64,000 nucleotides of DNA from assembly GCF_056746865.1 (NCBI RefSeq), contig NZ_CM163382.1; one strand, written 5' to 3'. The notes below the pieces were generated by a model. The model was not told where the DNA came from. It saw only the letters and a list, made by a program, of their open reading frames with translations, and ran no database searches. This document shows, one piece after another, positions 1,770 to 63,228 of this stretch. A program made the position numbers and the translations under genes. Position 1 is the stretch's first letter. Each line of letters begins with the position of its first letter.

Positions 1770-3773
1770 ATGTCCCGAAAAGACCTTGCCAATGCGATTC
1801 GCGCACTCAGTATGGATGCGGTACAAAAAGCCAATTCTGGTCATCCCGGCGCGCCGATGGGCATGGCTGATATTGCCGAAGTGCTGTGGAACGATTTTCT
1901 TAAACATAACCCCACCGACCCAACCTGGTATGATCGCGACCGCTTTATTCTTTCCAACGGCCACGCGTCGATGCTGCTCTACAGTTTGCTACATCTGACC
2001 GGTTACGACCTGCCGCTGGAAGAACTGAAGAACTTCCGTCAGTTGCATTCAAAAACCCCAGGTCACCCGGAGATTGGCTATACGCCAGGTGTTGAAACCA
2101 CCACCGGTCCACTTGGACAAGGTTTGGCGAACGCCGTCGGACTGGCGATAGCAGAGCGTACACTGGCGGCGCAGTTTAACCAGCCGGATCATGAAATTGT
2201 CGATCACTTCACCTATGTGTTTATGGGCGACGGTTGCCTGATGGAAGGTATTTCCCACGAAGTCTGTTCGCTGGCGGGCACGCTGGGACTGGGCAAGCTG
2301 ATTGGTTTTTACGATCACAACGGTATTTCCATCGACGGTGAAACCGAAGGCTGGTTTACCGACGATACAGCAAAACGTTTTGAAGCCTATCACTGGCATG
2401 TGATCCATGAAATCGACGGTCACGATCCGCAGGCGGTGAAGAAAGCGATCCTTGAAGCGCAAAGCGTGAAAGATAAGCCGTCGCTGATTATCTGCCGCAC
2501 AGTAATTGGCTTTGGTTCGCCGAATAAAGCAGGTAAGGAAGAGGCGCACGGCGCACCGCTGGGGGAAGAAGAAGTGGCGCTGGCACGGCAAAAACTGGGC
2601 TGGCACCATCCGCCATTTGAGATCCCTAAAGAGATTTATCACGCCTGGGATGCCCGCGAAAAAGGCGAAAAAGCGCAGCAGAGCTGGAATGAGAAGTTTG
2701 CCGCCTATAAAAAGGCCCATCCGCAACTGGCAGAAGAGTTTACCCGTCGGATGAGCGGTGGTTTACCGAAGGACTGGGAGAAAACGACTCAGAAATATAT
2801 CAATGAATTACAGGCGAATCCGGCGAAAATCGCCACCCGTAAGGCTTCGCAAAATACGCTTAACGCTTATGGCCCCTTGCTACCGGAGCTGCTCGGCGGT
2901 TCGGCGGATCTGGCTCCCAGCAACCTGACCATCTGGAAAGGTTCTGTGTCGCTGAAGGAAGATCCGGCGGGCAACTACATTCACTACGGGGTGCGTGAAT
3001 TTGGCATGACCGCTATCGCCAACGGCATTGCGCACCACGGCGGCTTTGTGCCGTATACCGCGACGTTCCTGATGTTTGTTGAATACGCCCGTAACGCCGC
3101 GCGGATGGCGGCACTAATGAAAGCGCGGCAGATTATGGTTTATACCCACGACTCAATTGGTCTGGGCGAAGATGGTCCTACGCACCAGGCTGTTGAGCAA
3201 CTGGCCAGTCTGCGCTTAACGCCAAATTTCAGCACCTGGCGACCGTGCGATCAGGTGGAAGCAGCGGTGGGCTGGAAGCTGGCCGTTGAGCGCCACAACG
3301 GACCGACGGCACTGATCCTCTCCAGGCAGAATCTGGCCCAGGTGGAACGTACGCCGGATCAGGTTAAAGAGATTGCTCGTGGCGGTTATGTACTGAAAGA
3401 CAGCGGCGGTAAGCCAGATATTATTTTGATTGCCACCGGTTCAGAGATGGAAATCACCCTGCAAGCGGCAGAGAAATTAGCGGGAGAAGGTCGCAATGTA
3501 CGCGTAGTTTCCCTGCCCTCGACCGATATTTTCGACGCCCAGGATGAGGAATATCGGGAGTCGGTGTTGCCTTCTAACGTTGCGGCTCGCGTGGCGGTGG
3601 AAGCAGGCATCGCCGATTACTGGTACAAATATGTTGGTCTGAAAGGGGCAATTGTCGGGATGACCGGCTATGGGGAATCTGCTCCGGCAGATAAGCTGTT
3701 CCCGTTCTTTGGCTTTACCGCCGAGAATATTGTGGCAAAAGCGCATAAGGTGCTGGGAGTGAAAGGTGCCTGA
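1770..3773 (+). CDS. tktB: transketolase 2
   Basis: ORF 1707-3773; true start taken as ATG 1770 ([21 protein letters not shown]...), giving 667 aa; thiamine-diphosphate transketolase motifs. Confidence 0.95.
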
Positions 3774-5044: not shown

Positions 5045-5620
5045 TCAGTCCATTAAATGTGACGTTTGCAAATAGTTAAGCAATAACACCGTCTTACCGT
5101 CACGTATCTCGCCGGTTTTGATCATCTCCAGCGCCTGGCTGAACGGCAGCTCGAGCACTTCAATATCTTCATCTTCGACACCGCCACCGGCGTTAGCGCG
5201 CTGATTGTCACTGTATTCGGCGATAAAAAAGTGGATTAGCTCAGTCACACCGCCTGGGGACATATACAGTTCAAATAATTTGCGCACTTCGCCCACTTCA
5301 TAGCCCGTCTCTTCAATCGCCTCTTTGCGAATGCACACTTCCGGTTCGTCGTTATCCAGCAGCCCGGCGCAGGTTTCAATCAGTTGCCCGCTTTCATTGC
5401 CATTAACCCAGGTAGCGACACGGAACTGACGAATCAGAACCACGGTCTTTTTCTTCGCGTTGTACAGGAGGATCGTCGCACCATTACCGCGATCGTAAAC
5501 TTCACGTTTATGACGGATAACTTCGCCATCTTTGCGCGTGAGATCGTAAGTAATGTTGTGCAGGGTGAAATAGTTATCGGAGAGAATTTTGTCTTTAATG
5601 AGGGTGATTTGTTGCGTCAT
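5045..5620 (-). CDS. nudK: GDP-mannose pyrophosphatase (Nudix hydrolase) NudK
   Basis: ORF 5045-5647; start placed at ATG 5620 ([18 protein letters not shown]...), 191 aa; Nudix box present. Confidence 0.9.
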
Positions 5621-5687
5621 ACCGACTCCACAGCGCGAAATGAACAATTATCTTACGCTGTGAAGCCGGGTTTGTCTGCGCAGGCTA

Positions 5688-7667
5688 TCAGTGAGATTTG
5701 ACTGATTTTACCCCCAGCCAGTCAATAATCCCCTGTGCCGCATGACGTCCTTCTGCCATTGCGGTAACCACCAGATCCGCACCACGCACGGCGTCACCAC
5801 CGGCGAAGATTTTCGGATTCGTGGTCTGATAACGGTACTGGCTTTCCACATCCGCGATGATGCGGCCCCATTTGTCTACCGTTACACCGTGCGACTCCAG
5901 CCACGGCATCCCGTGTGGATTGAAGCCAAACGCCATAATCACCGCGTCGGCTGGCATGACAAATTCACTGCCTTCCACCGGCACTGGACGCCGACGCCCC
6001 TGGGCATCCGGCTCGCCAAGACGCGTGCGCAGGAAACGAATTCCGCAAACGTGACCTTGCTCATTCAGCTCAAGCGCCACCGGCTGGACGTTAAATTCAA
6101 AGTTGGCCCCCTCTTCGCGGGCGTTCTTCACCTCTTTCTTCGAGCCTGGCATGTTAGCTTCATCACGACGATAAGCGCAGGTGACGTTACTCGCGCCGTG
6201 GCGCAGCGCGGTACGCACACAGTCCATCGCGGTGTCGCCGCCGCCCAGTACCACGACGTTGAGTCCGGCGGTATTGATAAACGGCTCTTCCGGTAGCTCT
6301 TCGAGTCCCATCACCTGTTTAGTGTTGGCGATGAGGAACGGCAGGGCGTCATAAACGCCCGGCGCATCTTCATTGGGTAAACCCGCTTTCATGGAACGGT
6401 AAGTGCCTACGCCAACGAAGACCGCGTCGTATTGTTCCAAAAGCGAATCCAAAGAGACATCTTTACCCACTTCACAATTGAGTTCGAAGTGAATCCCCAT
6501 CGCGCTGAAGATTTCCCGACGGCGTGCCAGCAGGGATTTATCCAGTTTGAAAGAAGGAATGCCGAAAGTGAGCAAGCCACCAATTTCTGGATGGCGATCG
6601 TACACCGTCACCGCCACGCCATTGCGGGTCAGAACATCCGCACAGGCCAGCCCTGCCGGACCTGCACCGATAATCGCCACCCGCTTGTCCACTTTGGTGA
6701 CATGGCTTAAGTCAGGACGCCAACCTTTCGCCAACGCCTGATCTGAAATGTAGCGTTCAATGTTGCCGATAGTTACCGCACCGTGCTCATCGCGAATAGT
6801 ACAGGCTCCTTCACACAAACGGTCTTGCGGACAAACGCGTCCGGTAATTTCCGGCAGGGTGTTGGTCTGGTGAGAAAGCTCGACGGCGGCGTCGATGTTT
6901 CCGGCTTTCACCAGTTCAATCCACTGCGGAATATGGTTATGCAGCGGGCAGGTCCATTCACAAACGCTGTGCTCGCCGCACTTAAGGCAGCGCGAGGCTT
7001 CCCGTTGTGCCTGATCGGCACGGAATGGCAGATAAATTTCATCAAAACCGGTTTTGCGCGCTTCAATCGCCAGTTTGTCCGGCTCGCCGCGCGCGGGCGT
7101 TGCCTGCATTTGCTCGACTTTACTCATTACCGGCATTTCTTGTGCCGCGGTACTGGCATGCCACGGTTGATGCTCCTGACGTGCGGTGCGCAAGCGGCGG
7201 GATTTCGCCATGCCGGAGAGTGCGGCGTCAGTGACCAGTTGCAGCGCGTCTGCCGGGCAATTCTCAACACAGGCAGGACCGTTTTCGCGCCCTGCACAAA
7301 GGTCGCATTTATGCGCCGTGGCTTTTACTTTGCCCGCCGCGACGGGTGTCAGGACGATTTGCATCGTACCAAACGGACAGGCCACCACGCAGGATTTACA
7401 GCCAATACACTTTTGCTGATTGACCTGAATGCTGTCATCAACGTGGCTGATTGCGCCATTAGGGCAGCTACGGGCGCAGGGCGCATCTTCACAATGGTGA
7501 CAGGTCACTGCACTACGTTGCTGCTGATGTTTGATAACCGTAATTCGGGGATGAAAATGGTGTTGGCTCAAGACATGTTGCTCATCATTGTGAGCCATGA
7601 CACAGGCGATTTCACAAGCATGACAACCCAGACATTGCTGACTGTTGGCCATAATAAAACGATTCAT
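5688..7667 (-). CDS. aegA: putative oxidoreductase AegA (Fe-S cluster and pyridine-nucleotide disulfide oxidoreductase domains)
   Basis: 659-aa ORF; N-terminal 4Fe-4S ferredoxin Cys clusters and C-terminal GltD-like FAD/NAD domain; length matches AegA. Confidence 0.9.
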   Translation of the reverse strand: MNRFIMANSQQCLGCHACEIACVMAHNDEQHVLSQHHFHPRITVIKHQQQRSAVTCHHCEDAPCARSCPNGAISHVDDSIQVNQQKCIGCKSCVVACPFGTMQIVLTPVAAGKVKATAHKCDLCAGRENGPACVENCPADALQLVTDAALSGMAKSRRLRTARQEHQPWHASTAAQEMPVMSKVEQMQATPARGEPDKLAIEARKTGFDEIYLPFRADQAQREASRCLKCGEHSVCEWTCPLHNHIPQWIELVKAGNIDAAVELSHQTNTLPEITGRVCPQDRLCEGACTIRDEHGAVTIGNIERYISDQALAKGWRPDLSHVTKVDKRVAIIGAGPAGLACADVLTRNGVAVTVYDRHPEIGGLLTFGIPSFKLDKSLLARRREIFSAMGIHFELNCEVGKDVSLDSLLEQYDAVFVGVGTYRSMKAGLPNEDAPGVYDALPFLIANTKQVMGLEELPEEPFINTAGLNVVVLGGGDTAMDCVRTALRHGASNVTCAYRRDEANMPGSKKEVKNAREEGANFEFNVQPVALELNEQGHVCGIRFLRTRLGEPDAQGRRRPVPVEGSEFVMPADAVIMAFGFNPHGMPWLESHGVTVDKWGRIIADVESQYRYQTTNPKIFAGGDAVRGADLVVTAMAEGRHAAQGIIDWLGVKSVKSH

Positions 7668-7869
7668 AACGACCTTCTTTTTTGGTTGTAAAAACCTTAT
7701 TCTTTATATGAGTGTTGTTATTACCCGACTTACAGGGGAATCGGCAATGTTCATGTGCCCAGAATAAGTAACTATTTCGCTATAAACTGTGGCAGATCAA
7801 ATAATCCCATCACTGACTAAATTGCGTTTCAGCGAACTGGAACATTAATGATTTTTTGTGGAGAAGACG

Positions 7870-9573
7870 CGTGTGATTGTTAAACGACCCGTCTCGGCCA
7901 GTCTGGCCCGGGCCTTTTTTTACATTGTGCTGCTGTCGATTCTTTCCACGGGTATCGCTCTGCTAACTCTGGCGAGCAGTTTGCGCGACGCTGAGGCTAT
8001 CAATATTGCCGGATCGCTGCGTATGCAGAGTTACCGCCTGGGCTACGACTTGCAAAGTGGCAGTCCACAACTCAATGCACATCGCCAGTTATTTCAGCAG
8101 GCACTGCATTCACCGGTATTAACCAATCTCAACGTCTGGTATGTGCCAGAAGCAGTAAAAACCCGCTATGCGCATCTGAATGCCAACTGGCTGGAGATGA
8201 ATAATCGGCTCAGCAAGGGCGATTTACCGTGGTATCAGGCCAATATTAATAATTATGTTAATCAGATAGACCTGTTCGTACTGGCTTTACAGCACTACGC
8301 TGAACGCAAAATGCTGCTGGTGGTGGCGATTTCCCTGGCTGGCGGCATCGGTATTTTCACGCTGGTCTTTTTTACTTTGCGCCGCATACGCCATCAGGTG
8401 GTTGCCCCGCTGAATCAGCTGGTTACCGCCAGTCAGCGTATTGAACACGGGCAGTTCGACTCGCCGCCGCTGGATACCAGCCTGCCGAATGAGCTTGGCC
8501 TGCTTGCCAAAACCTTTAACCAGATGTCGAGCGAGCTGCATAAATTGTACCGTTCGCTGGAGGCGTCAGTAGAAGAAAAGACCCGCGATCTCCACGAGGC
8601 CAAGCGTCGCCTGGAGGTGTTGTATCAGTGTTCGCAGGCGCTGAACACCAGCCAGATTGATGTGCATTGTTTCCGCCATATTTTGCAGATTGTGCGCGAC
8701 AACGAAGCGGCTGAATATCTGGAGTTAAATGTCGGTGAAAACTGGCGGATTAGCGAAGGGCAACCAAACCTGGAATTGCCGATGCAGATTTTACCGGTGA
8801 CAATGCAAGAGACGGTTTACGGCGAACTGCACTGGCAAAATAGTCACGTTTCATCATCAGAACCGCTGCTTAACAGTGTTTCGTCGATGCTGGGACGCGG
8901 TTTGTACTTTAATCAGGCGCAGAAGCATTTTCAGCAGTTATTGTTGATGGAAGAACGTGCGACCATCGCCCGCGAATTGCACGACTCGCTGGCTCAGGTA
9001 CTTTCTTACTTACGTATCCAGTTGACGTTACTGAAGCGTTCGATACCGGAAGATAACGCCACCGCACAAAGTATCATGGCCGATTTTTCCCAGGCGTTGA
9101 ATGATGCTTATCGGCAGTTACGCGAGCTGTTAACTACTTTCCGCCTGACGCTGCAGCAGGCAGATCTCCCCTCCGCGTTGAGGGAAATGCTGGATACGTT
9201 ACAAAATCAAACCAGCGCTAAACTGACCCTCGACTGCCGCCTGCCAACCCTGGCGCTGGATGCGCAAATGCAGGTGCATTTGTTGCAAATTATTCGCGAA
9301 GCGGTGCTGAATGCGATGAAGCACGCCAACGCCAGCGAAATCGCCGTTAGCTGCGTCACCGCGCCGGACGGCAATCACACAGTCTATATTCGCGACAACG
9401 GGATTGGCATCGGTGAACCGAAAGAACCCGAAGGCCATTATGGTCTGAATATCATGCGCGAACGCGCGGAAAGATTGGGTGGGACGCTGACTTTTTCACA
9501 ACCTTCCGGCGGCGGCACGTTAGTGAGTATTAGCTTTCGCTCCGCGGAGGGTGAGGAAAGTCAGCTGATGTAA
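7870..9573 (+). CDS. narQ: nitrate/nitrite sensor histidine kinase NarQ
   Basis: ORF 7858-9573; start placed at GTG 7870 (MIVKRPVSASLARAFFYIV...); HAMP domain and histidine-kinase H-box (ELHDSLAQ) present. Start codon choice +/- 4 codons uncertain. Confidence 0.9.
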   Translation, partial: RVIVKRPVSASLARAFFYIVLLSILSTGIALLTLASSLRDAEAINIAGSLRMQSYRLGYDLQSGSPQLNAHRQLFQQALHSPVLTNLNVWYVPEAVKTRYAHLNANWLEMNNRLSKGDLPWYQANINNYVNQIDLFVLALQHYAERKMLLVVAISLAGGIGIFTLVFFTLRRIRHQVVAPLNQLVTASQRIEHGQFDSPPLDTSLPNELGLLAKTFNQMSSELHKLYRSLEASVEEKTRDLHEAKRRLEVLYQCSQALNTSQIDVHCFRHILQIVRDNEAAEYLELNVGENWRISEGQPNLELPMQILPVTMQETVYGELHWQNSHVSSSEPLLNSVSSMLGRGLYFNQAQKHFQQLLLMEERATIARELHDSLAQVLSYLRIQLTLLKRSIPEDNATAQSIMADFSQALNDAYRQLRELLTTFRLTLQQADLPSALREMLDTLQNQTSAKLTLDCRLPTLALDAQMQVHLLQIIREAVLNAMKHANASEIAVSCVTAPDGNHTVYIRDNGIGIGEPKEPEGHYGLNIMRERAERLGGTLTFSQPSGGGTLVSISFRSAEGEESQLM

Positions 9574-55234: not shown

Positions 55235-55732
55235 TCAGTGCCACGATTTTTGCTTCTTCAGTGAATCGTATTGCTGTTCGCAGGATTCTCCTGCAATCCG
55301 ATACTTTTCAGCCTCAGCTGCTGTTGCGTTGTAAACTCGATTGCTTTCTTCAAGCATGTCGGCGAGCACACCGATGACCTTGCTGGCTGGCGTGCCAGTG
55401 GGGAAAGATCCGGTATAGTGTTCGGCGAGTCGCTTGGTTTTGTCAAGCTCGGCGCGCAGGCTGTCAGCAGCGGCATTAGCATGCTCAGCATCAACACGCG
55501 CCACATCGATACGGGATTGTGCTTCACGTTCAATTTGTGTTTTCTCCTGATCACGTTGTGACCTGGCCTTATCATCAGCCTGTTTCTGATCTTCCTGTGC
55601 CTGCGCATACCCGGCATCGTACTGGCGACTGCCGTGTATATTCCAGGCAACCACTCCGACGGTAAACAGAGCAGCAAGAATCACCACGATAAGCAGTTGT
55701 TTCCAATATGCTTTTACGAATGCCCAGATCAT
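55235..55732 (-). CDS. prophage i-spanin (Rz-like inner-membrane spanin)
   Basis: 165-aa ORF with one N-terminal TM helix then a charged coiled-coil body; start overlaps the endolysin stop (ATGA); last gene of the lysis cassette. Confidence 0.7.
55258..55506 (-). CDS. prophage o-spanin (Rz1-like outer-membrane lipoprotein) embedded in the +1 frame of the Rz-like gene
   Basis: ORF 55258-55677 in an alternate frame inside Rz; from ATG 55506 it encodes [17 protein letters not shown]... with lipobox LTA-C followed by a proline-rich short mature region; start codon choice tentative. Confidence 0.6.
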   Translation of the reverse strand: MWRVLMLSMLMPLLTACAPSLTKPSDSPNTIPDLSPLARQPARSSVCSPTCLKKAIEFTTQQQLRLKSIGLQENPANSNTIH

Positions 55733-56358
55733 ATAGCCAGCACCTTACTGGCAGTGACGTACCGCGCGCGCCGGTCGTCGATGCCGTTCCGGCCACCATT
55801 GATAATCAGAGTTACACGTGCAATATCACCGGTATACTTCATGCATCCTTTGCTGGCAAAGAACCACGCCGCGCTACGAGCCGCGTATTCGTCCTGCGCC
55901 AGCAGTTCAGGATTCTCCAGCAAGTCCACTTTCAAGCCGTTTCCGCAGTCACGATAGTTATTCAAACCGGTAATCTGGATAAGTCCGCGACCTCGGTAAT
56001 TCCAGCCATCGCCGGGGGCATTGTTCCCCATGCGTTTGCTGTACACCAGATTGGCAATCGCTCTCTGGCGCTCAGGTGGCAATGGTGGTTCACCAGCACG
56101 GCGCCCCAATGCGTTGGCCTGTCCCTGAGTGAGACGCCCAGCCCGAACGAAGTTAGCCAGTCCGCTGACGCTGTAGTTGAAATTTTCCTGCAACCGGGTG
56201 AAACCTCCAGACTCATGCCCGACCTGAGCAATAAACATTGCCTGATCTTCTGGTTTGCTGATACCAAACTCTTTCATCGCAGAAGTTATATGCGAGAACC
56301 AGCGTGCGGCAAGCGCCTCGCTAATACCAGCAGCTCGCTGGAATTGTTTAATCTCCAT
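55729..56358 (-). CDS. prophage endolysin, glycoside hydrolase family 19 (chitinase-like lysozyme)
   Basis: ORF 55729-56523; start placed at ATG 56358 preceded by GAGGT ([21 protein letters not shown]...), 209 aa; GH19/COG3179-like motifs ([21 protein letters not shown]). Confidence 0.8.
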
Positions 56359-56656
56359 GTTTAGACCTCGATACTTTGAAAATTTGAACGACGTTACCGC
56401 GCGTTTTAATAACCGCAGCGAGCATGACAGCGTTGATAATGACCTCAGATAAATCCACAGCCATTGGCGTGCGGAACCAGATTGCATAGGCAACACGAAC
56501 CGGAATACTGGCCGCAGCAACAATCAGGAAATAAGCAAGCCACCCCCCCCATCTTCGATGTTGAGATCCGTTACGCCGGAATGTGACAACACGAATTGCT
56601 ATGCCAGTACAAATAACTGCATTGGTGATAAGTAAAAACAGGTCATGCGTTACCAT
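56348..56656 (-). CDS. small membrane protein in lysis cassette (putative holin or antiholin, 2-3 TM)
   Basis: 102-aa hydrophobic ORF directly upstream of the endolysin gene and overlapping it by 11 nt; function assigned by position only. Confidence 0.5.
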
Positions 56657-57059
56657 CGTCTTTTCTCCCCGGAATTAACTCGCGTGGATTATCGGAACGG
56701 TGATAGAGCCAGATACCAATTCGCACTGCGACAATTGCTGATACGAATGCGCCAGCAGAGAAAACAATCCCTTTCTCGAACGAGTCCTGCGTGATGGTAG
56801 GGATCAGGCTGGCTATGCCGATAAGAATTGATGCTGCTGGTTTGTAAAAAAGAAGGCCGCAGAGAAAGCTAAGCATCGACAAAAGCACACGACGACGAAT
56901 GGGATACTCTACCGCAGAGGTAACAAAAATTACCGCTCCAGCCAAAGACCCCAAAGCAACCTCGGGAGGAACTCCTGCTATCACCGCCGCCAGAGAAGTC
57001 ATGCTAAGCCACTGATTCAAAGAATCACTGGTTGTCTGAATTGACATGATAAACACCAT
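56643..57059 (-). CDS. putative holin (multi-TM small membrane protein), first gene of lysis cassette
   Basis: 138-aa ORF with 3-4 predicted TM segments and a basic C-terminal tail; two Met codons within the first five (M1, M5); overlaps the next gene by 14 nt. Confidence 0.55.
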   Translation of the reverse strand: MVFIMSIQTTSDSLNQWLSMTSLAAVIAGVPPEVALGSLAGAVIFVTSAVEYPIRRRVLLSMLSFLCGLLFYKPAASILIGIASLIPTITQDSFEKGIVFSAGAFVSAIVAVRIGIWLYHRSDNPRELIPGRKDDGNA

Positions 57060-57187
57060 TTATTTCACATAAACAACTCCATTAAATAAATGTTTATCAT
57101 ACACAATAAACCATTTATGGATAATTATTACTCGTGATTTTTATGATTATTCGCGCATTTTTCTATCATTTTTATCCAGTGTGCCGT

Positions 57188-57211
57188 AAAACCACGTCCT
57201 TAAGGGCGTGG
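57188..57211 (-). terminator. hairpin terminator downstream of the tail fiber gene
   Basis: Minus strand: CCACGCCC-ttaa-GGACGTGG followed by TTTTAC; about 160 bp after the tail fiber stop. Confidence 0.5.
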
Positions 57212-57236
57212 ATGATGTCAACTGATGATGTCAACT
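57211..57236. repeat. perfect tandem direct repeat 2 x 13 bp (GATGATGTCAACT) in the tail fiber - holin intergenic region
   Basis: gatgatgtcaact gatgatgtcaact read directly from the sequence at 57211-57223 and 57224-57236. Confidence 0.7.
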
Positions 57237-57372
57237 ATTGGCTGGCTTTGACTGATATTGCAGGAGTTGTTGGATAAGATTTAAGTGACCGTCAAAGCGG
57301 TCACTTATGAGAAAAGGAAGTTAGACAAAGTGGCAAACAGGCTCATTGATGGCTACGTCAATGACCAAGGTT

Positions 57373-59775
57373 TCATTCAGACTCCAGCAACTCTATCCTG
57401 GCGAGAAGCGCTTCATATTTATCAAGTAATCGAGAGTAGTTCCTTCGTTGCATTGCAGCTTCCATTACCAACATTTCTTCATAACGAATGCCGTAACGGG
57501 AACCAGCTTCTATAGCAGGAGTGATTACCTCACCGGTTTCATCATCTATGACGGCAGGAGTGTCACCCCATTCATCATAACAGATGAAACCAAAGCGATG
57601 AGCATCAAGACCATGCCTTTCGAATGCCTCCACGTACCGTTGAGCAATGGCGCCGAAGTGCCAGCGGGCGCCATCAGCGCCTTTTTCTTTAATCCTATCC
57701 AGATACTTATACTGGACTAGCTGAACCTCTTCTGCGGCATCGAGAATGGCATCAGTCATTAGTAATGGGTCTGATTTGCAAATGGCATCTGACGTGATAG
57801 TGAACGCCGTTTGAGTGAATCCACCAGACCACGGAAACGAACTTGCCCCGCAAGGATAGGTATTTGCCGTGGCAGGACGTATTTGCTTCACAGCAAATAC
57901 GTGCGACGTCATTTCTGCTGTACCAGAACCCGTAACGCCGGGATCTCCACCAGAGACACGTAAAATCCCTGTAGGGACAGATGAGTCCGTCGATGAATAA
58001 AAGCGAATCTGCTGTGCTTCTGCAACACCAGGGTTACATAGCTTAATAGCTTTAGTTGTGAACGCATTAGTATCCGTATCAAATATCCAGTATCTGTTGT
58101 TTGAACCACCATCTATAATAACGTTCGCAAGAGATACACCAACTCGCTGTATATTAGAAATATTGTTAGCATTAGTACCAGCAGTTAACTGAATACCCCT
58201 TGTGCAATTATTTACACGCGAGTTACTAATAGTATTATTAGCAGCAAATCTAGTGCCAGCGGTATTTCCTGTCAGGAGAGTATGCGTAGTGTCCTTACTG
58301 AAGCCTGTCAATAACACCTCATTATTAGTGAACGTACCGTACTGAGCACATGATTTAAAACCGATATAAGGTGTGGTTAAATCCTCAGGAATACCATTCC
58401 ATACCATACAAAAGTTATCTGTAATTACACTATGGTTTCCTCCATTGTTAGACAAATCACCCAACTCTACAGCACTTATGGAAGTATTGAAGTGGTTATT
58501 TGTAACCTGGAACAGGTTACCAACATTGTTTTCAGAAACAACTCCGCGGCGACCAGCAATGATATGGTTACCGAAAACCACAACACCTTCGGTATCGTCA
58601 TGCGCGTACATGAAGGTGTCGAAGTTCTGATAAGAACCATTGACAATATTGATATTCTTTGTTGAGTACAGGTCGAATATTTTACCCATTCGATATGCTG
58701 GTACAGATGTTCCTCCACCAGTTACGTTAACGCCGTCAAATACACACTGACCAGCTCTGCTTAGCTTAAAGACAGTATCAAAAGAGGATTGAGTACCAGC
58801 ATCATTTGACACATCCAGGTCACGAACGATAAGTTGTCGGGCGTATTCGATTCCCCCTGTCCCTAAAAACGTAAGCGCAGTACCCTGAAGTTGCCCGGTA
58901 GCTTTTATCGTGAAATTACGTAAACCAACAGGTTTTCTTACTACAGTCGTACCCGAGTTATCAATGATAAGACCATATCCAGCAGCAAATTTTATTCCGC
59001 ATGTAGCCATGCTTACGCCAAAAACATCACTATAAAAATTAGTTACTGAGATGTCGCTTGAGCAGTTGTATATACGACGAAGCTTAATATCTAGACCAGT
59101 TTCCTTTGCTGCAGTAAAGGCATTGATCAGTGCCAAGGTATCATCAGCATCACCTCCAACAGCGCCAAAATCCTCAGGAGTGAGTGATTCCCTCATTTTA
59201 TCCTGGAACGTTCGGTATACTGCCCCATAACCATACTGAATAAACCAACCAAAACCACCAACAACCCCGGCGATTGCAGCATCGACATAATTACGCATTG
59301 AGCGATTATTTACAGCGTCCTGCTCAAGTGATGGATCTGCAAGGTTAGAAATTCTGTTTTGCTTTGCATCGTAATATTTTGCAAGCAAAGATGGTTTCAT
59401 CAATGCACGTCTGAACCACCCAAAACATTGCTGGATCAGCATCGTCAGGTAGTCAAAGGCATCTTCATGCACTTCGGGAAAAAACTTTCCCTGATTGCGA
59501 AGGTCTGTCTCCTGTACTACATCAAGCACACGATCTATCGTAATTCGCCATCCAGTAGCAAGCGGAGACGGAAGAACCACAGAACCGCCACTATAAGTGC
59601 CCGCCCCAGTTACCGTATAACCGGTATCCAGAACCAATTCTGTTACGTTCCCGTTCAGGTCAGACACCTGAACAACCAGGTCTGATTTTCTGAAAATTCG
59701 AAAAGTATACGGAAACGATGTCGTAACGCCGTTACCTGTGTATTCGTTGTGGTCAACTTCGGTTGAGACCGTCAT
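57373..59775 (-). CDS. prophage tail fiber/tailspike (N-terminal virion-attachment domain, central beta-helix-like domain, C-terminal intramolecular chaperone domain)
   Basis: 800-aa ORF preceded by GGAG; N-terminus has the tail-fiber motif ...NRISNLADPSLEQDAVN... (compare T7 gp17 RIVNLANAVDDRDAV); middle is Gly/Asn/Thr-rich repeat typical of beta-helix tailspikes; C-terminal ~130 aa resemble S74-type chaperone domains. Confidence 0.8.
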   Translation of the reverse strand: MTVSTEVDHNEYTGNGVTTSFPYTFRIFRKSDLVVQVSDLNGNVTELVLDTGYTVTGAGTYSGGSVVLPSPLATGWRITIDRVLDVVQETDLRNQGKFFPEVHEDAFDYLTMLIQQCFGWFRRALMKPSLLAKYYDAKQNRISNLADPSLEQDAVNNRSMRNYVDAAIAGVVGGFGWFIQYGYGAVYRTFQDKMRESLTPEDFGAVGGDADDTLALINAFTAAKETGLDIKLRRIYNCSSDISVTNFYSDVFGVSMATCGIKFAAGYGLIIDNSGTTVVRKPVGLRNFTIKATGQLQGTALTFLGTGGIEYARQLIVRDLDVSNDAGTQSSFDTVFKLSRAGQCVFDGVNVTGGGTSVPAYRMGKIFDLYSTKNINIVNGSYQNFDTFMYAHDDTEGVVVFGNHIIAGRRGVVSENNVGNLFQVTNNHFNTSISAVELGDLSNNGGNHSVITDNFCMVWNGIPEDLTTPYIGFKSCAQYGTFTNNEVLLTGFSKDTTHTLLTGNTAGTRFAANNTISNSRVNNCTRGIQLTAGTNANNISNIQRVGVSLANVIIDGGSNNRYWIFDTDTNAFTTKAIKLCNPGVAEAQQIRFYSSTDSSVPTGILRVSGGDPGVTGSGTAEMTSHVFAVKQIRPATANTYPCGASSFPWSGGFTQTAFTITSDAICKSDPLLMTDAILDAAEEVQLVQYKYLDRIKEKGADGARWHFGAIAQRYVEAFERHGLDAHRFGFICYDEWGDTPAVIDDETGEVITPAIEAGSRYGIRYEEMLVMEAAMQRRNYSRLLDKYEALLARIELLESE

Positions 59776-59931: not shown

Positions 59932-59951
59932 TACTGTATAAATATACAGTT
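59932..59951 (+). promoter_or_regulatory. LexA (SOS) box immediately upstream of the small plus-strand ORF
   Basis: tACTGTATAAATATACAGtt matches the LexA consensus TACTGTATATATATACAGTA at 18/20 with CTGT-N8-ACAG intact; ends 6 bp before ATG 59957. Confidence 0.7.
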
Positions 59952-59956
59952 ATTGC

Positions 59957-60229
59957 ATGGAGAAGATTAAGATGCAGCAGTATCACTATCCACTGGAAGA
60001 CGGATTTACCGAAAGGATTCACACGCCGGGAGGCGTCAGGTCACTGGTGGAGGGATCGCACTTGATGAAATTACTCCGGGATCTCGATAAGGATGGATTT
60101 AATGTCGATGGCCCACTTGCCGAACTGACTGCACTGATTAACTACGTCACCAGCTCACAGATGTCTATGCGGGATCTGCAAACACATCTCGACTATTGTG
60201 CCGAACAATTACGAAAACAAACCCGGTAA
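59957..60229 (+). CDS. small SOS-box-associated prophage protein of unknown function (90 aa, or 85 aa from ATG 59972 which has the better GGAGA Shine-Dalgarno)
   Basis: ORF in track; soluble, charged, no TM segment; LexA box overlaps its promoter region; convergent with the 98-aa membrane protein gene. Confidence 0.55.
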   Translation: MEKIKMQQYHYPLEDGFTERIHTPGGVRSLVEGSHLMKLLRDLDKDGFNVDGPLAELTALINYVTSSQMSMRDLQTHLDYCAEQLRKQTR

Positions 60230-60235
60230 ATTTAA

Positions 60236-60273
60236 AGGCCGCAAGAGCGGCCTGTGACATGTCACGCTCTTTT
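60236..60273. terminator. bidirectional terminator between the convergent small genes
   Basis: GGCCGC-aaga-GCGGCC hairpin then GTGACATGTCAC palindrome and CTCTTTTTC; T-rich on both strands (tttaaattt on the minus side). Confidence 0.55.
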
Positions 60274-60558
60274 TCTGAATGATAGCCATTCGAAAAATGA
60301 TGACATTCCACCGCAGACAATAGCAAAGATGATCCCACCAAAGAAGAGAAGGCCAGCCTGCCACCACTCCCACCGCCATACATCCACAGCGCCAACCATA
60401 CCAACAATCGCTCCAACAAATGGAATATAGCTCACGATGAAAGCAATGGGGGCTGCAATTATCCAGTGCAATCCCCACCATGATTCAAGCCCAGCCATAA
60501 TTGCTGCCAACTGAAAAAGACCAACGACGATATAAACAATGAATCCTATAGCTTGCAT
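60262..60558 (-). CDS. small 3-TM inner-membrane protein of unknown function (moron; candidate superinfection-exclusion or conversion protein)
   Basis: 98-aa ORF with AGGTGA Shine-Dalgarno; three hydrophobic helices, Trp-rich loop (VDVWRWEWWQAG), basic C-terminus FRKRA. Confidence 0.6.
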   Translation of the reverse strand: MQAIGFIVYIVVGLFQLAAIMAGLESWWGLHWIIAAPIAFIVSYIPFVGAIVGMVGAVDVWRWEWWQAGLLFFGGIIFAIVCGGMSSFFEWLSFRKRA

Positions 60559-60570
60559 GTAGTCACCTAT

Positions 60571-60744
60571 TTACCCAGTAAAAATCAGAGGCCTCCCCTC
60601 AATAAGGCTTGCAACAAGAACTATTCCCTGCACAACAAAGATGAACCAGCAAATAGCTTGAGTCTGAGGGTTAAGAAAATATTTGTAGCGGTCAATAAAT
60701 AACAACCCACCAGAAATTATCACACTCAAAATAATTAAAAACAC
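60571..60744 (-). CDS. possible 57-aa two-TM membrane peptide (GTG start), translationally coupled to the upstream virion protein gene
   Basis: Not in ORF track (under 60 aa). GTG 60744 is preceded by AAGGAAG overlapping the 824-aa gene stop; product (M)FLIILSVIISGGLLFIDRYKYFLNPQTQAICWFIFVVQGIVLVASLIEGRPLIFTG; same frame as the upstream gene. Confidence 0.35.
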   Translation of the reverse strand: MFLIILSVIISGGLLFIDRYKYFLNPQTQAICWFIFVVQGIVLVASLIEGRPLIFTG

Positions 60745-60753
60745 AACACTTCC

Positions 60754-63228
60754 TTATTGCGGAGTGACATCCTGAGGTCGCCACCAGTATGTCTGGTTAA
60801 ACTCTTTCTTCGAACGTTGCTCCATTTTACGCAAATAGCCTGGTGAAAAATACTCCTGCATCTGGTTAAAGATCATATGATCGAGAGCCGCCTTTAAGTA
60901 CCAGAGATTCGCACCTGGCATCAAACCTTTCCCCAGCTTCACCAGATCACCACCAGTCTGCTCACTCTTCCCTTCCACAGCATTTAACGGTATGCCCTGA
61001 GCAATCTTCACTACGTCATCAACCAGACCAGCTACCGGGCCAAGCATCGACGCCAGCGCGCCGCTTCCGTACCTAGTGTGATCTGACAATAAAAAGTCAC
61101 CGTAAAGGCCAAGACCACCACCTTTCAGTAGAGCACCAAGCCAAAATTTAGCAGCATCTTCTCCTGTCATCTCGCGAGGATTACGACCAGACGCAAGGTC
61201 GTTAAGTTGCTGCGACAAAGCGCCAAGAATGGTCGTACTGGCAATAAACGTCGCAATATATGCCGCACGCCCACCAGCAGACGGCATACCCATAGCGCGT
61301 GACCAGTGACGCATAACCACCGAGATAGGGAACGATTTAAACAGGAAAACACTTCTCGTTAATTCACCTTTCCATGTTCCACGCTGAATACCAGAACCGG
61401 TTATCAGTTGCTCACGTGCTCCCGGTGTAATAACAGCCATATCAACTTCTTCAGTTACGGCACCGAGCAGTTTACGCATTGCCTCAAATTTCACGCGTTC
61501 AGGCTCACCAAGATGTTTAACTGCTGAATCAGGGATACGCATAATGCTTTCCGGTGTCAGCATCGTATTATTGCCGTTCCCCCAGTCCTCCTGTTGCGCC
61601 AGCTTCCATACGCTCCAGTCTGTGTCAGTAATCCCTTTGCTTTTCAGGATACGAAAATCAGAATCATCGAGGCTACGAAGGTCTGGTGTCCGTGACACTA
61701 CTTCTCCCAGGCTTCCCATCATGGTTACGCCATAGGCGCGCTTGTGCGCATCTGACCATGCTGTAAGCCCACTGGCACGCATTACCGCCGTTGCAGCCCA
61801 ACGAGACACAGACGGCCCCATATTATCCATCGCCCAGCGGTTAACGCTGCCAAGTAGAGATTCCATCGCCAGACCAGCGCGGCGCGCCCGCGCAAGTTCT
61901 GTACGGTTCGTTGGGTCCATAGCTTCAAGCTGGTTGCGGAATAACTGGTTCATTGGAAGGTTGGTAACCTTCGCAGACAGATACATGGTTCCAAGATCAG
62001 AGAACGATGACAGCAACGCGGATCCGAGTCTGCTGGCAACCAGCCAGTTGCGGATATTGTCAGACCATCGCGCGATGTGCGGATTCGCTACAGGCTGTGT
62101 CTTTCCGGAAATAAAATTGTACAGATTCTCTGTGTTGTTCGCCAGCCGCTCGACTTTACCGGTTTTACTCGGGTTAGCTGTTGCCGTTTCTGCCTTCACC
62201 TGATCAAGAAGAGAGCGGAAAACATGATCGGGGTTTGGGCCATATGTTTCCACCAGTGCAATATCTTTACTGATACCTTCAAGGTGACCGACCATGATTT
62301 CCCATAGAGAGCGATCGCCATAAAGTTGCTGATATTGCAGATAGGAATCTGCATCTTTGAAATGTATCTGTCGTGATGCATTACCACGGTTAGCACGTGC
62401 GCCGGAAATTCGCATTCCGGTATCAGTAAGCTTATTCAGCCCACCAGTAGCGATCGTGTTATAAGCCTCTCCAAGAAATGCAGACAACTCGGCATCGTTC
62501 ATCAGTTGTCCATCGGCTCGGGTATAATATTTGCGATCCAGCTTACCTATAACATCGCTAACCCATTTATCTTTTGATACCGCCCCAACCTTTTCCATAG
62601 AATGATGTTGAGGGATCCCCCAGTTTTCGAGATAGCCAATGTCCCCACCAGCATCATTAAACCGGCGGCGCAGCAGCTCTGTAACTTCTCTCCACGCCTT
62701 AGCACCTTTTCTTGCTTTAGCATTGCCAGTATTTTGCCCCCGCATTTCATATACCAGGTCACGTACGCCCGCTTCATCTTCAAACAGACCAAAAAAGCGA
62801 GGATCAACTGCTTCGAATGCCTCCTGCAATTGACTCAATGCATAATCACGGGTGGCTTTTGTTCTGGATTCAACAGAGAGGAAATTCGATTTACCGTCTG
62901 CATTAAAAGCAATAGTACGGTTAAGAGCGCCAAGTTTCCCATCAGCCCCTTGATAGCTATTGATAAATTTATCCAATCTCTGACGTGCGGCTATAGTGAG
63001 GGCCACACGACGTTTCTTTAATGCCGCTTCTCGCTGTAATTCTTCAGATGCCAATTGTGCTGCACGATACAACCGTTCTGATTCGGAAAGTTGTCGCCAC
63101 GACATCGGGTCATCACGAGCAATGGAGCGCATATTTCGATAAATGCGGTCTTCAATGTTCTGTATTTCTCGCGCCGTTAACGTGCGCTGCGCCGCCTGCT
63201 GGACCGCTTGTATACATTCCTGTCTCAT
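60754..63228 (-). CDS. large prophage virion protein, function unknown (putative internal virion / DNA-ejection protein by position)
   Basis: 824-aa ORF; N-terminal coiled-coil, Gly-rich C-terminal region; directly upstream of the tail fiber module; no catalytic motif recognised. Confidence 0.6.
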   Translation of the reverse strand: MRQECIQAVQQAAQRTLTAREIQNIEDRIYRNMRSIARDDPMSWRQLSESERLYRAAQLASEELQREAALKKRRVALTIAARQRLDKFINSYQGADGKLGALNRTIAFNADGKSNFLSVESRTKATRDYALSQLQEAFEAVDPRFFGLFEDEAGVRDLVYEMRGQNTGNAKARKGAKAWREVTELLRRRFNDAGGDIGYLENWGIPQHHSMEKVGAVSKDKWVSDVIGKLDRKYYTRADGQLMNDAELSAFLGEAYNTIATGGLNKLTDTGMRISGARANRGNASRQIHFKDADSYLQYQQLYGDRSLWEIMVGHLEGISKDIALVETYGPNPDHVFRSLLDQVKAETATANPSKTGKVERLANNTENLYNFISGKTQPVANPHIARWSDNIRNWLVASRLGSALLSSFSDLGTMYLSAKVTNLPMNQLFRNQLEAMDPTNRTELARARRAGLAMESLLGSVNRWAMDNMGPSVSRWAATAVMRASGLTAWSDAHKRAYGVTMMGSLGEVVSRTPDLRSLDDSDFRILKSKGITDTDWSVWKLAQQEDWGNGNNTMLTPESIMRIPDSAVKHLGEPERVKFEAMRKLLGAVTEEVDMAVITPGAREQLITGSGIQRGTWKGELTRSVFLFKSFPISVVMRHWSRAMGMPSAGGRAAYIATFIASTTILGALSQQLNDLASGRNPREMTGEDAAKFWLGALLKGGGLGLYGDFLLSDHTRYGSGALASMLGPVAGLVDDVVKIAQGIPLNAVEGKSEQTGGDLVKLGKGLMPGANLWYLKAALDHMIFNQMQEYFSPGYLRKMEQRSKKEFNQTYWWRPQDVTPQ

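Follow-up and report, generated by a model that had tools for sequence, protein, structure and literature searches.

Two small membrane-protein genes at the end of a prophage ejection-protein operon in Escherichia coli: a constant gene, an exchangeable neighbour and a possible role in superinfection exclusion

Two small adjacent genes, encoding a peptide of 57 amino acids (aa) and a membrane protein of 98 aa, lie near the end of a 64,000-nucleotide stretch of contig NZ_CM163382.1 (RefSeq assembly GCF_056746865.1; below, the window), within the end of an epsilon15/phiV10-like (Uetakevirus) prophage that occupies 55.1-64 kilobases (kb), the remaining window being Escherichia coli chromosome. Our analysis revealed that in many temperate podoviruses the ejection operon ends, as a constant feature, with the 98-aa gene, and that the place between it and the preceding gp17-like virion/ejection protein gene, taken here by the 57-aa gene, is a hypervariable slot, which holds at least seven unrelated small proteins besides the 57-aa peptide, mostly envelope-targeted, or no gene. 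We suppose, with a probability of about 0.4, that the two genes are superinfection-exclusion cargo acting at the inner membrane. In this case they would be accessory genes carried as cargo at the far end of the ejection-protein operon, one of them constant and the other swappable; both products would insert into the inner membrane and disturb the way in which the ejection proteins of incoming podoviruses assemble their trans-envelope DNA conduit or insert it into the membrane, in a manner that may be likened to that of P22 SieA, HK97 gp15 and T4 Imm. The 98-aa protein would be the general element of this system, and the variable upstream gene (here the 57-aa one) might provide an independent, exchangeable second exclusion or envelope function.

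The position of the 98-aa gene is the central observation. Members of its family were found in temperate podoviruses directly after the last gene for an ejection or internal virion protein, beside at least six unrelated proteins of this kind. This last gene encodes an 824-aa protein in E. coli and Klebsiella, an 849-aa one in Cronobacter (with a gap of 1 nucleotide, nt), an epsilon15-like one of 921 aa (locus L104), one of 1129/1130 aa, an 833-aa protein in a T7-like Salmonella prophage, where Bro-N and terminase genes follow, and a 1055-aa protein in the Acinetobacter phage TPWB-05, where the stop and start codons overlap (hhalign, 99.1%). The latter phage carries a CI-like repressor and an excisionase. 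A further last gene, in the viral contig L108 and beside the six types listed, encodes a 937-aa protein. In the preliminary description of the locus, made from the window alone, the small genes had been taken for an insertion; the 98-aa gene is instead no one-off acquisition of this prophage, as it recurs at the operon end across temperate podoviruses. When three divergent members were compared by tblastn with 50,697 phage records, only Uetakevirus phages or prophage records and TPWB-05 were retrieved, and all phage carriers found are temperate.

The 98-aa protein is still 93-100% identical where the adjoining gp17 C-terminus is only ~29% identical; the gene is therefore exchanged independently of gp17, which fits an accessory gene and not a co-evolving structural partner. 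Both small genes are missing from phiV10 and epsilon15, which carry unrelated genes for proteins with two transmembrane (TM) segments in their place, and among 5,426 complete E. coli genomes the cassette was found in 215 (~4%) and the 3' end of this gp17 in 319. Since phiV10 and epsilon15 lack the 98-aa gene, and since about one third of the E. coli genomes with this gp17 are without the cassette, the gene is dispensable. These counts bear out two expectations raised earlier, namely that the locus would vary between conserved flanks and that the small proteins would not be core components of the virion.

Members of the family occur in other contexts as well. In a Pyramidobacter phage-like element, one of them (hhalign, 99.6%) is encoded 8 nt downstream of a CI/LexA-family repressor gene and upstream of an integrase gene; the repressor-adjacent site is the classical place for exclusion genes expressed from a prophage. 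No relatives of the Pyramidobacter protein were found in IMG/VR. The 18-kb linear 'plasmid' NZ_CP133039 of Pyramidobacter sp. YE332 (L016) resembles a temperate phage, having genes for CI, a Cro-like protein, integrase, Rha, holin and DUF2800/DUF2815 proteins, and it encodes at 3044-3328 a Crn3/Csx3 ring nuclease with a possible anti-type-III-CRISPR function. Other members are located on plasmid-like or mobile-element-like contigs with Replicase/PriCT, RepL, RecT or resolvase genes, and one in a phage early region. On the plasmid-like metagenome contig L014, a member is followed, 3 nt on, by a gene for a 101-aa multi-TM protein (2403-2708), an arrangement that echoes the prophage pairing. As to the sampling of contexts, the scan of genome contigs gave two loci, the Microvirga neighbourhood was uninformative, and several metagenome contigs were too short.

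In contrast to the constancy of the 98-aa gene, the slot upstream of it changes its content from phage to phage. The 57-aa two-TM peptide occupies it in most E. coli and Klebsiella loci. Elsewhere it is taken by a 54-aa two-TM peptide (L087), a 103-aa two-TM protein, signal-peptide proteins of 123 and 102 aa (related to each other) or of 175 aa, a 112-aa multi-TM protein, a 204-aa protein, or a secreted protein of 147-170 aa encoded in antisense (phrog_8772, unknown function; 5539-5982, minus strand, in the Yersinia locus L011 and 7536-8048, minus strand, in the viral contig L108), and in some loci the 98-aa gene directly follows the gp17-like gene with no gene between them. The antisense phrog_8772 gene leaves ~18 bp between the divergent starts. 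Comparison of the occupants with each other gave a relationship only for the 123/102-aa pair and a weak resemblance for the 57/54-aa pair (29% over 48 aa), the rest being unrelated; all of them are of unknown function in PHROGs. The 57-aa protein itself forms 13 clusters in E. coli, Citrobacter, Klebsiella, Salmonella and Enterobacter. Of 73 viral contigs with its gene, 71 have the 98-aa gene next to it downstream, and in one contig an unrelated 92-aa two-TM protein replaces the 98-aa one. An obligate two-component system was considered and rejected, as many different genes, or no gene at all, accompany the 98-aa gene in other loci, and the 57-aa gene can precede that of the 92-aa protein.

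Both open reading frames (ORFs) are real genes under purifying selection, the 57-aa one being under weaker constraint. This is concluded from their ribosome-binding sites, the ratio of nonsynonymous to synonymous polymorphism (pN/pS) in frame, and the preservation of length and frame. Over unique related sequences (n=46 for the 98-aa frame and n=26 for the 57-aa frame), pN/pS was 0.09 for the 98-aa frame vs 1.8 and 4.8 in the shifted frames, and 0.32 for the 57-aa frame vs 0.86 and 1.41. The 171-nt length of the 57-aa ORF is kept in 26 of its 27 unique copies. In both genes the Shine-Dalgarno sequence stands 4 nt from the start codon (AAGGAAG before GTG in the 57-aa gene and AGGTGA before ATG in the 98-aa one), and Klebsiella-type copies of the former use GGAGG and a TTG start with the frame unchanged. 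The spacer before the 98-aa gene is near-invariant (diversity 0.000-0.007 in 38 unique related sequences), and the sole indel between the two genes, found in phage phiv142-3, falls within it. In that phage, Orf12 (L001, 4028-4384) is annotated as 118 aa long, since the 1-nt spacer insertion makes a start codon further upstream available; counted from the conserved ATG, the protein has 98 aa. The 57-aa ORF is unannotated in RefSeq E. coli FT130 (L135) and in several phage records.

The 98-aa protein has three TM segments by hydropathy, and AlphaFold2, supplied with a 114-sequence alignment, modelled it with a predicted local distance difference test score (pLDDT) of 93.7 as helices 2-28, 32-60 (with a kink at the invariant P46) and 65-97; the 57-aa peptide has two TM segments by hydropathy. 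The three-helix and two-helix proteins of the preliminary description are thus recovered, and both products are predicted to be located in the inner membrane. The 98-aa protein ends in a basic SFRKRA tail, and therefore its C-terminus would be inside and its Trp-rich WxWEWWQAG loop (invariant W61-x-W63-x-W65-W-Q67-A68) at the periplasmic face, giving an N-out/C-in topology. Helices 1 and 2 contain glycine-zipper motifs, which suggest that the protein associates with itself. In the metagenomic protein P0070 (427 aa), three to four copies of the 98-aa domain stand in tandem, which is consistent with function as an oligomer. The conserved positions G13-Q16-A19, P46-G49-G53-A57 and W61-W63-(W65)-Q67-A68 are present in alignments A1 and A3, the latter, diverse alignment being too divergent for pattern scanning.

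By sequence, the protein matches phrog_3075 (function unknown; E 2e-54, residues 1-97). A word-indexed search gave 52 relatives in Klebsiella, Cronobacter, Dickeya, Yersinia, Kosakonia and Salmonella, and a profile search of 1.84 billion representatives gave 720 clusters, counted at 50% identity, with E<=1e-3, 281 of them with E<=1e-10. Most members are stand-alone proteins of 90-120 aa, and some have DUF805, RDD, MORN or another membrane domain joined to them; when 41 members were scanned with Pfam, only the three named fusion partners were recovered, and the shared domain was not. The 98-aa protein had no significant match in NCBIfam, PADLOC or Pfam-A, and the 57-aa protein none in PHROGs, Pfam, NCBIfam or PADLOC. 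A profile search of PDB sequences with the 98-aa family gave 0 matches, Foldseek against PDB and BFVD gave no match below E=2, and the structure matches in AFDB50 were uncharacterised proteins of the same family only, from many phyla. The 98-aa family is, therefore, a large small-membrane-protein domain outside Pfam-A, and the initial statement that neither protein is recognisable holds, since these remote-homology searches led to no characterised family.

The surroundings of the two genes in the window are summarized in the table; coordinates, orientation and neighbours of the small genes were all given correctly at the outset.

Table. Features of the prophage end in and around the small-gene locus (window positions)
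Feature	Position	Strand	Remarks
gp16-like gene		minus	3' end only; upstream of the gp17-like gene
gp17-like virion/ejection protein, 824 aa	60754-63228	minus	phrog_684 'virion structural protein', E=0
Shine-Dalgarno sequence AAGGAAG of the 57-aa ORF	60749-60755	minus	sequence inspection; overlaps the gp17 stop codon
57-aa two-TM peptide gene	60571-60744	minus	GTG start at 60744-60742
Shine-Dalgarno sequence AGGTGA of the 98-aa gene	60563-60568	minus	sequence inspection
98-aa three-helix membrane protein gene	60262-60558	minus	ATG start; phrog_3075 family
7-bp GC-rich hairpin AGGCCGC-TCTT-GCGGCCT	60236-60253	either	terminator-like match and RNA fold
90-aa epsilon15 gp19 homologue, convergent	59957-60229	plus	phrog_450, E 2e-48
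LexA box TACTGTATAAATATACAGT	59932-59950	plus	exact palindromic match; 0.02 expected by chance
Tailspike, 800 aa, epsilon15-type N-terminal head-binding domain	57373-59775	minus	phrog_1171 tail spike, E 1e-167
Lysis cassette: two holin-family genes, endolysin, spanin	55235-57059	minus	3 kb from the small genes

The 824-aa protein is a homologue of phiV10 p20 and epsilon15 gp17, and its gene is the last large one in the ejection-protein operon; in relatives, the genes upstream of it encode proteins with SLT and T7_gp14-like domains. On the other side, the hairpin stands directly after the 98-aa stop codon, between convergent transcription units. It is plausible as a terminator for the 98-aa gene and equally for the whole operon, the T-tract being mediocre on both strands. 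Of the bidirectional terminator proposed earlier, the hairpin is thus real, and its function in both directions is plausible only. The convergent SOS-box gene of the same description stands, with an exact LexA box ahead of it. The C-terminus of its 90-aa product matches the anti-repressor family phrog_1760 (E 5.5e-7); given this match and the LexA box, the gene resembles, as a candidate, an SOS-controlled small antirepressor (cf. Tum of coliphage 186 and the Gifsy phages). In Cronobacter and Klebsiella relatives, a HicA toxin/DUF1902 (HicB-like) pair is found in the convergent immI-like region by Bro-N antirepressor genes (L004/L015, ~6360-6820; L119, 11191-11697). Between the tailspike gene and the first holin-like gene, this prophage has no gene (57060-57372). 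The corresponding slot of relatives is occupied by O-antigen conversion genes (oac in phiV10, gp21/gp22 in epsilon15, an acyltransferase gene in FT130, gtr-type genes in Cronobacter); a serotype-conversion module seems to be missing from its usual place here.

The locus had been described as a moron; in the strict sense of the term, this status is doubtful. Patchy presence among close relatives is evident from the lack of both genes in phiV10 and epsilon15 and from the varying slot contents, and a terminator of its own may be seen in the downstream hairpin, which equally ends the operon. The GC content of the 57-aa ORF (37.4%) deviates from that of the gp17-like gene (49.4%), and that of the 98-aa ORF (46.1%) does not do so clearly. 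What does not agree with moron status is the promoter, as none was found in a consensus scan and the genes are packed behind gp17. The sequence TGtGATAAT inside the 57-aa ORF is weak and partly kept in Klebsiella-type copies, and the first third of this ORF shows little synonymous-site diversity; neither was counted as promoter evidence.

We favour superinfection exclusion because all phage carriers found are temperate, the genes are dispensable and independently exchanged, one family member is adjacent to a repressor gene, the slot next to the 98-aa gene is a hot spot where envelope proteins collect, the layout is P22-like, and HK97 gp15 provides a precedent. For such a function, the genes should be expressed from the repressed prophage in the lysogen, as we infer them to be. 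Several observations weigh against this reading. The consensus scan at its set threshold detected no sigma-70-like promoter upstream of either gene, a weak or non-sigma-70 promoter being still possible, and the tight packing behind gp17 (gaps of 9 nt from gp17 to the 57-aa ORF and 12 nt from the 57-aa stop to the 98-aa gene; 1 nt or an overlap elsewhere) looks like late-operon co-expression and not like prophage expression; sieA of P22, for its part, is on the opposite strand and has its own promoter, whereas the genes discussed here are co-oriented with gp17 without a promoter match. No homology to characterised exclusion proteins was found by hhalign with SieA, among the Pfam families Imm, YebO and SieB (no match for either protein even at E <= 10) or in PADLOC, and a literature search gave no mention of phrog_3075, phiV10 p21 or epsilon15 gp18, nor a function or experiment for any family member. 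Furthermore, the 98-aa family is not phage-specific: its occurrence in many phyla and its fusions with membrane domains may reflect a general membrane role. Finally, the strong purifying selection on the 98-aa gene points to a conserved partner and not to the target of an arms race. A broader proposal, which we consider less likely than not, sees in the 98-aa protein the prototype of a widespread, so far unrecognised family of inner-membrane proteins that block genome entry and are carried across phyla by temperate podoviruses, other prophages and plasmids; in epsilon15-like prophages it would be the fixed member of an exclusion hot spot with two positions, the second of which keeps exchanging unrelated small envelope proteins of differing specificity.

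The packing that speaks against prophage expression would be natural for late-expressed helpers of the lytic cycle, which might condition the inner membrane, shield the producer cell from its own ejection proteins, or tune membrane integrity or the timing of lysis. Such a role, which we consider rather unlikely, is consistent with the common orientation, the tight coupling to gp17 and the absence of a promoter match upstream, as well as with the retention of the operon-end position in many temperate podoviruses, with a weak, sub-threshold similarity to Phage_holin_5_2 (independent E-value, i-E, 0.027) and with the moderate hydrophobicity of C-terminal segments of gp17. However, pairs of 98-aa proteins that are 93-100% identical go together with gp17 types less than 30% identical, which argues against specific self-protection; phiV10 and epsilon15 are viable without the 98-aa gene; and family members lie beside a CI repressor gene and on plasmid-like elements without ejection genes. 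Besides, a complete lysis cassette is present elsewhere in the prophage, and no holin-like fold was found in BFVD or PDB; together with the sub-threshold score, this led us to reject an identification of the protein as a holin. The breadth of the family, with its 720 clusters in many phyla, its DUF805, RDD and MORN fusions and tandem-repeat forms, its members on plasmid-like contigs and its strong purifying selection, would also agree with cargo for host fitness, that is, with a general small membrane protein (acting in stress tolerance, membrane homeostasis or some transport-related process) for which the operon end is a permissive site. This explanation, to which we assign a similarly low probability, leaves unexplained why the gene recurs at the same junction from Escherichia to Acinetobacter podoviruses and why the neighbouring slot gathers mostly small envelope-targeted proteins.

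Two further explanations are even less probable. Surface (O-antigen) conversion, by which the small proteins would inhibit or modify the O-antigen polymerase or ligase and so alter the tailspike receptor, had been put forward in the preliminary description; it is suggested by the likeness of epsilon15 gp22 (66 aa, two-TM) to the 57-aa peptide in size and topology and by the distance of less than 1 kb between the small genes and the tailspike gene. There is, however, no sequence or profile similarity to gp22, conversion genes of relatives have their own slot downstream of the tailspike gene, which is empty here, and the 98-aa family accompanies many tailspikes and hosts, non-enterics included, so that this function is very unlikely. 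That the proteins are accessory components of the virion or of ejection, either carried in the particle or required when the ejection proteins are assembled or delivered, seems hardly credible: the genes are the last of the ejection operon and are translationally coupled to gp17, but phiV10 and epsilon15 do without both of them, they are freely exchanged among unrelated types of ejection proteins, the contents of the slot are replaceable, and polytopic membrane proteins would be improbable capsid cargo.

If the superinfection-exclusion reading is correct, the 98-aa family would constitute a group of injection blockers novel in sequence and far wider spread than SieA, HK97 gp15 and Imm, as it is present in ~4% of complete E. 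coli genomes and in prophages of Klebsiella, Salmonella, Cronobacter, Yersinia and Acinetobacter. The junction after the last ejection gene would then be a predictable hot spot for mining small envelope-acting anti-phage proteins, and the finding would have consequences for the host range of therapeutic phages against lysogens and for our view of the passage of podovirus ejection proteins through the inner membrane. If it is wrong, there is still a large conserved domain outside Pfam, with a confident model and a conserved position that needs explanation.

Among the systems known, the closest in layout is that of phage P22, whose annotation gives the ejection genes 7-20-16, then sieA, the mnt/arc/ant (immI) genes and the tailspike gene 9. 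The order of ejection genes, small membrane gene(s), terminator, convergent antirepressor-type region and tailspike gene is alike in both prophages, and the small genes have the position of P22 sieA/immI, after the last ejection gene and before the tailspike gene, as was noted from the outset. SieA is a three-TM inner-membrane protein, escape mutations from which map to the ejection proteins gp16 and gp20 (PMC10883804). The 98-aa gene is comparable in encoding a predicted polytopic membrane protein (3-4 TM segments in the SieA family) of small size and inner-membrane type, and in being dispensable, patchy and placed where several unrelated sequence types share one position. It differs in length (98 aa against 162-164 aa), and the cytoplasmic motif FxRYPxEAxxFNK of SieA is missing, by inspection, from both small proteins. 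Homology to SieA was rejected, as hhalign of the 114-sequence profile with P22 SieA gave a probability of 0.4%.

HK97 gp15, which stems from the widespread bacterial YebO family and whose gene is part of the late operon, is a small exclusion protein of the inner membrane (PMC3594210). The 98-aa gene likewise stands inside a late operon and in its orientation, belongs to a mostly non-phage bacterial family and is present in only some related phages. The sequences are unrelated, with no YebO match in Pfam for the proteins of this locus; for the HK97 moron, a promoter and a terminator of its own have been reported along with proven expression from the prophage, whereas only the downstream hairpin is seen here; and HK97 is a siphovirus, so that the target of gp15 depends on the tail and not on ejection proteins.

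In the nearest phages, epsilon15 gp18 (64 aa) and phiV10 p21 (46 aa) stand at the same junction after gp17 and are followed by a terminator and a convergent gp19-like gene. They are two-TM proteins comparable in size to the 57-aa ORF product; they have no significant similarity to the 57-aa or 98-aa protein, belong to PHROGs 29212 (gp18) and 7892 (p21) and have no 98-aa gene after them. Epsilon15 gp22, the inhibitor of the O-antigen alpha-polymerase, is a two-TM protein of ~66 aa from the same phage genus, but it is encoded downstream of the tailspike gene by an O-antigen polymerase gene; homology to it was rejected, as BLASTP gave no alignment and hhalign 0.4%.

T4 Imm, a small membrane protein regarded as a blocker of DNA passage through the inner membrane, resembles the proposed activity; it differs in belonging to a lytic phage, in early expression and in having no sequence relation to the proteins described here. 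The small genes of this prophage probably add to the small membrane exclusion or cargo proteins known from prophages a new member that is unrelated to the others in sequence.

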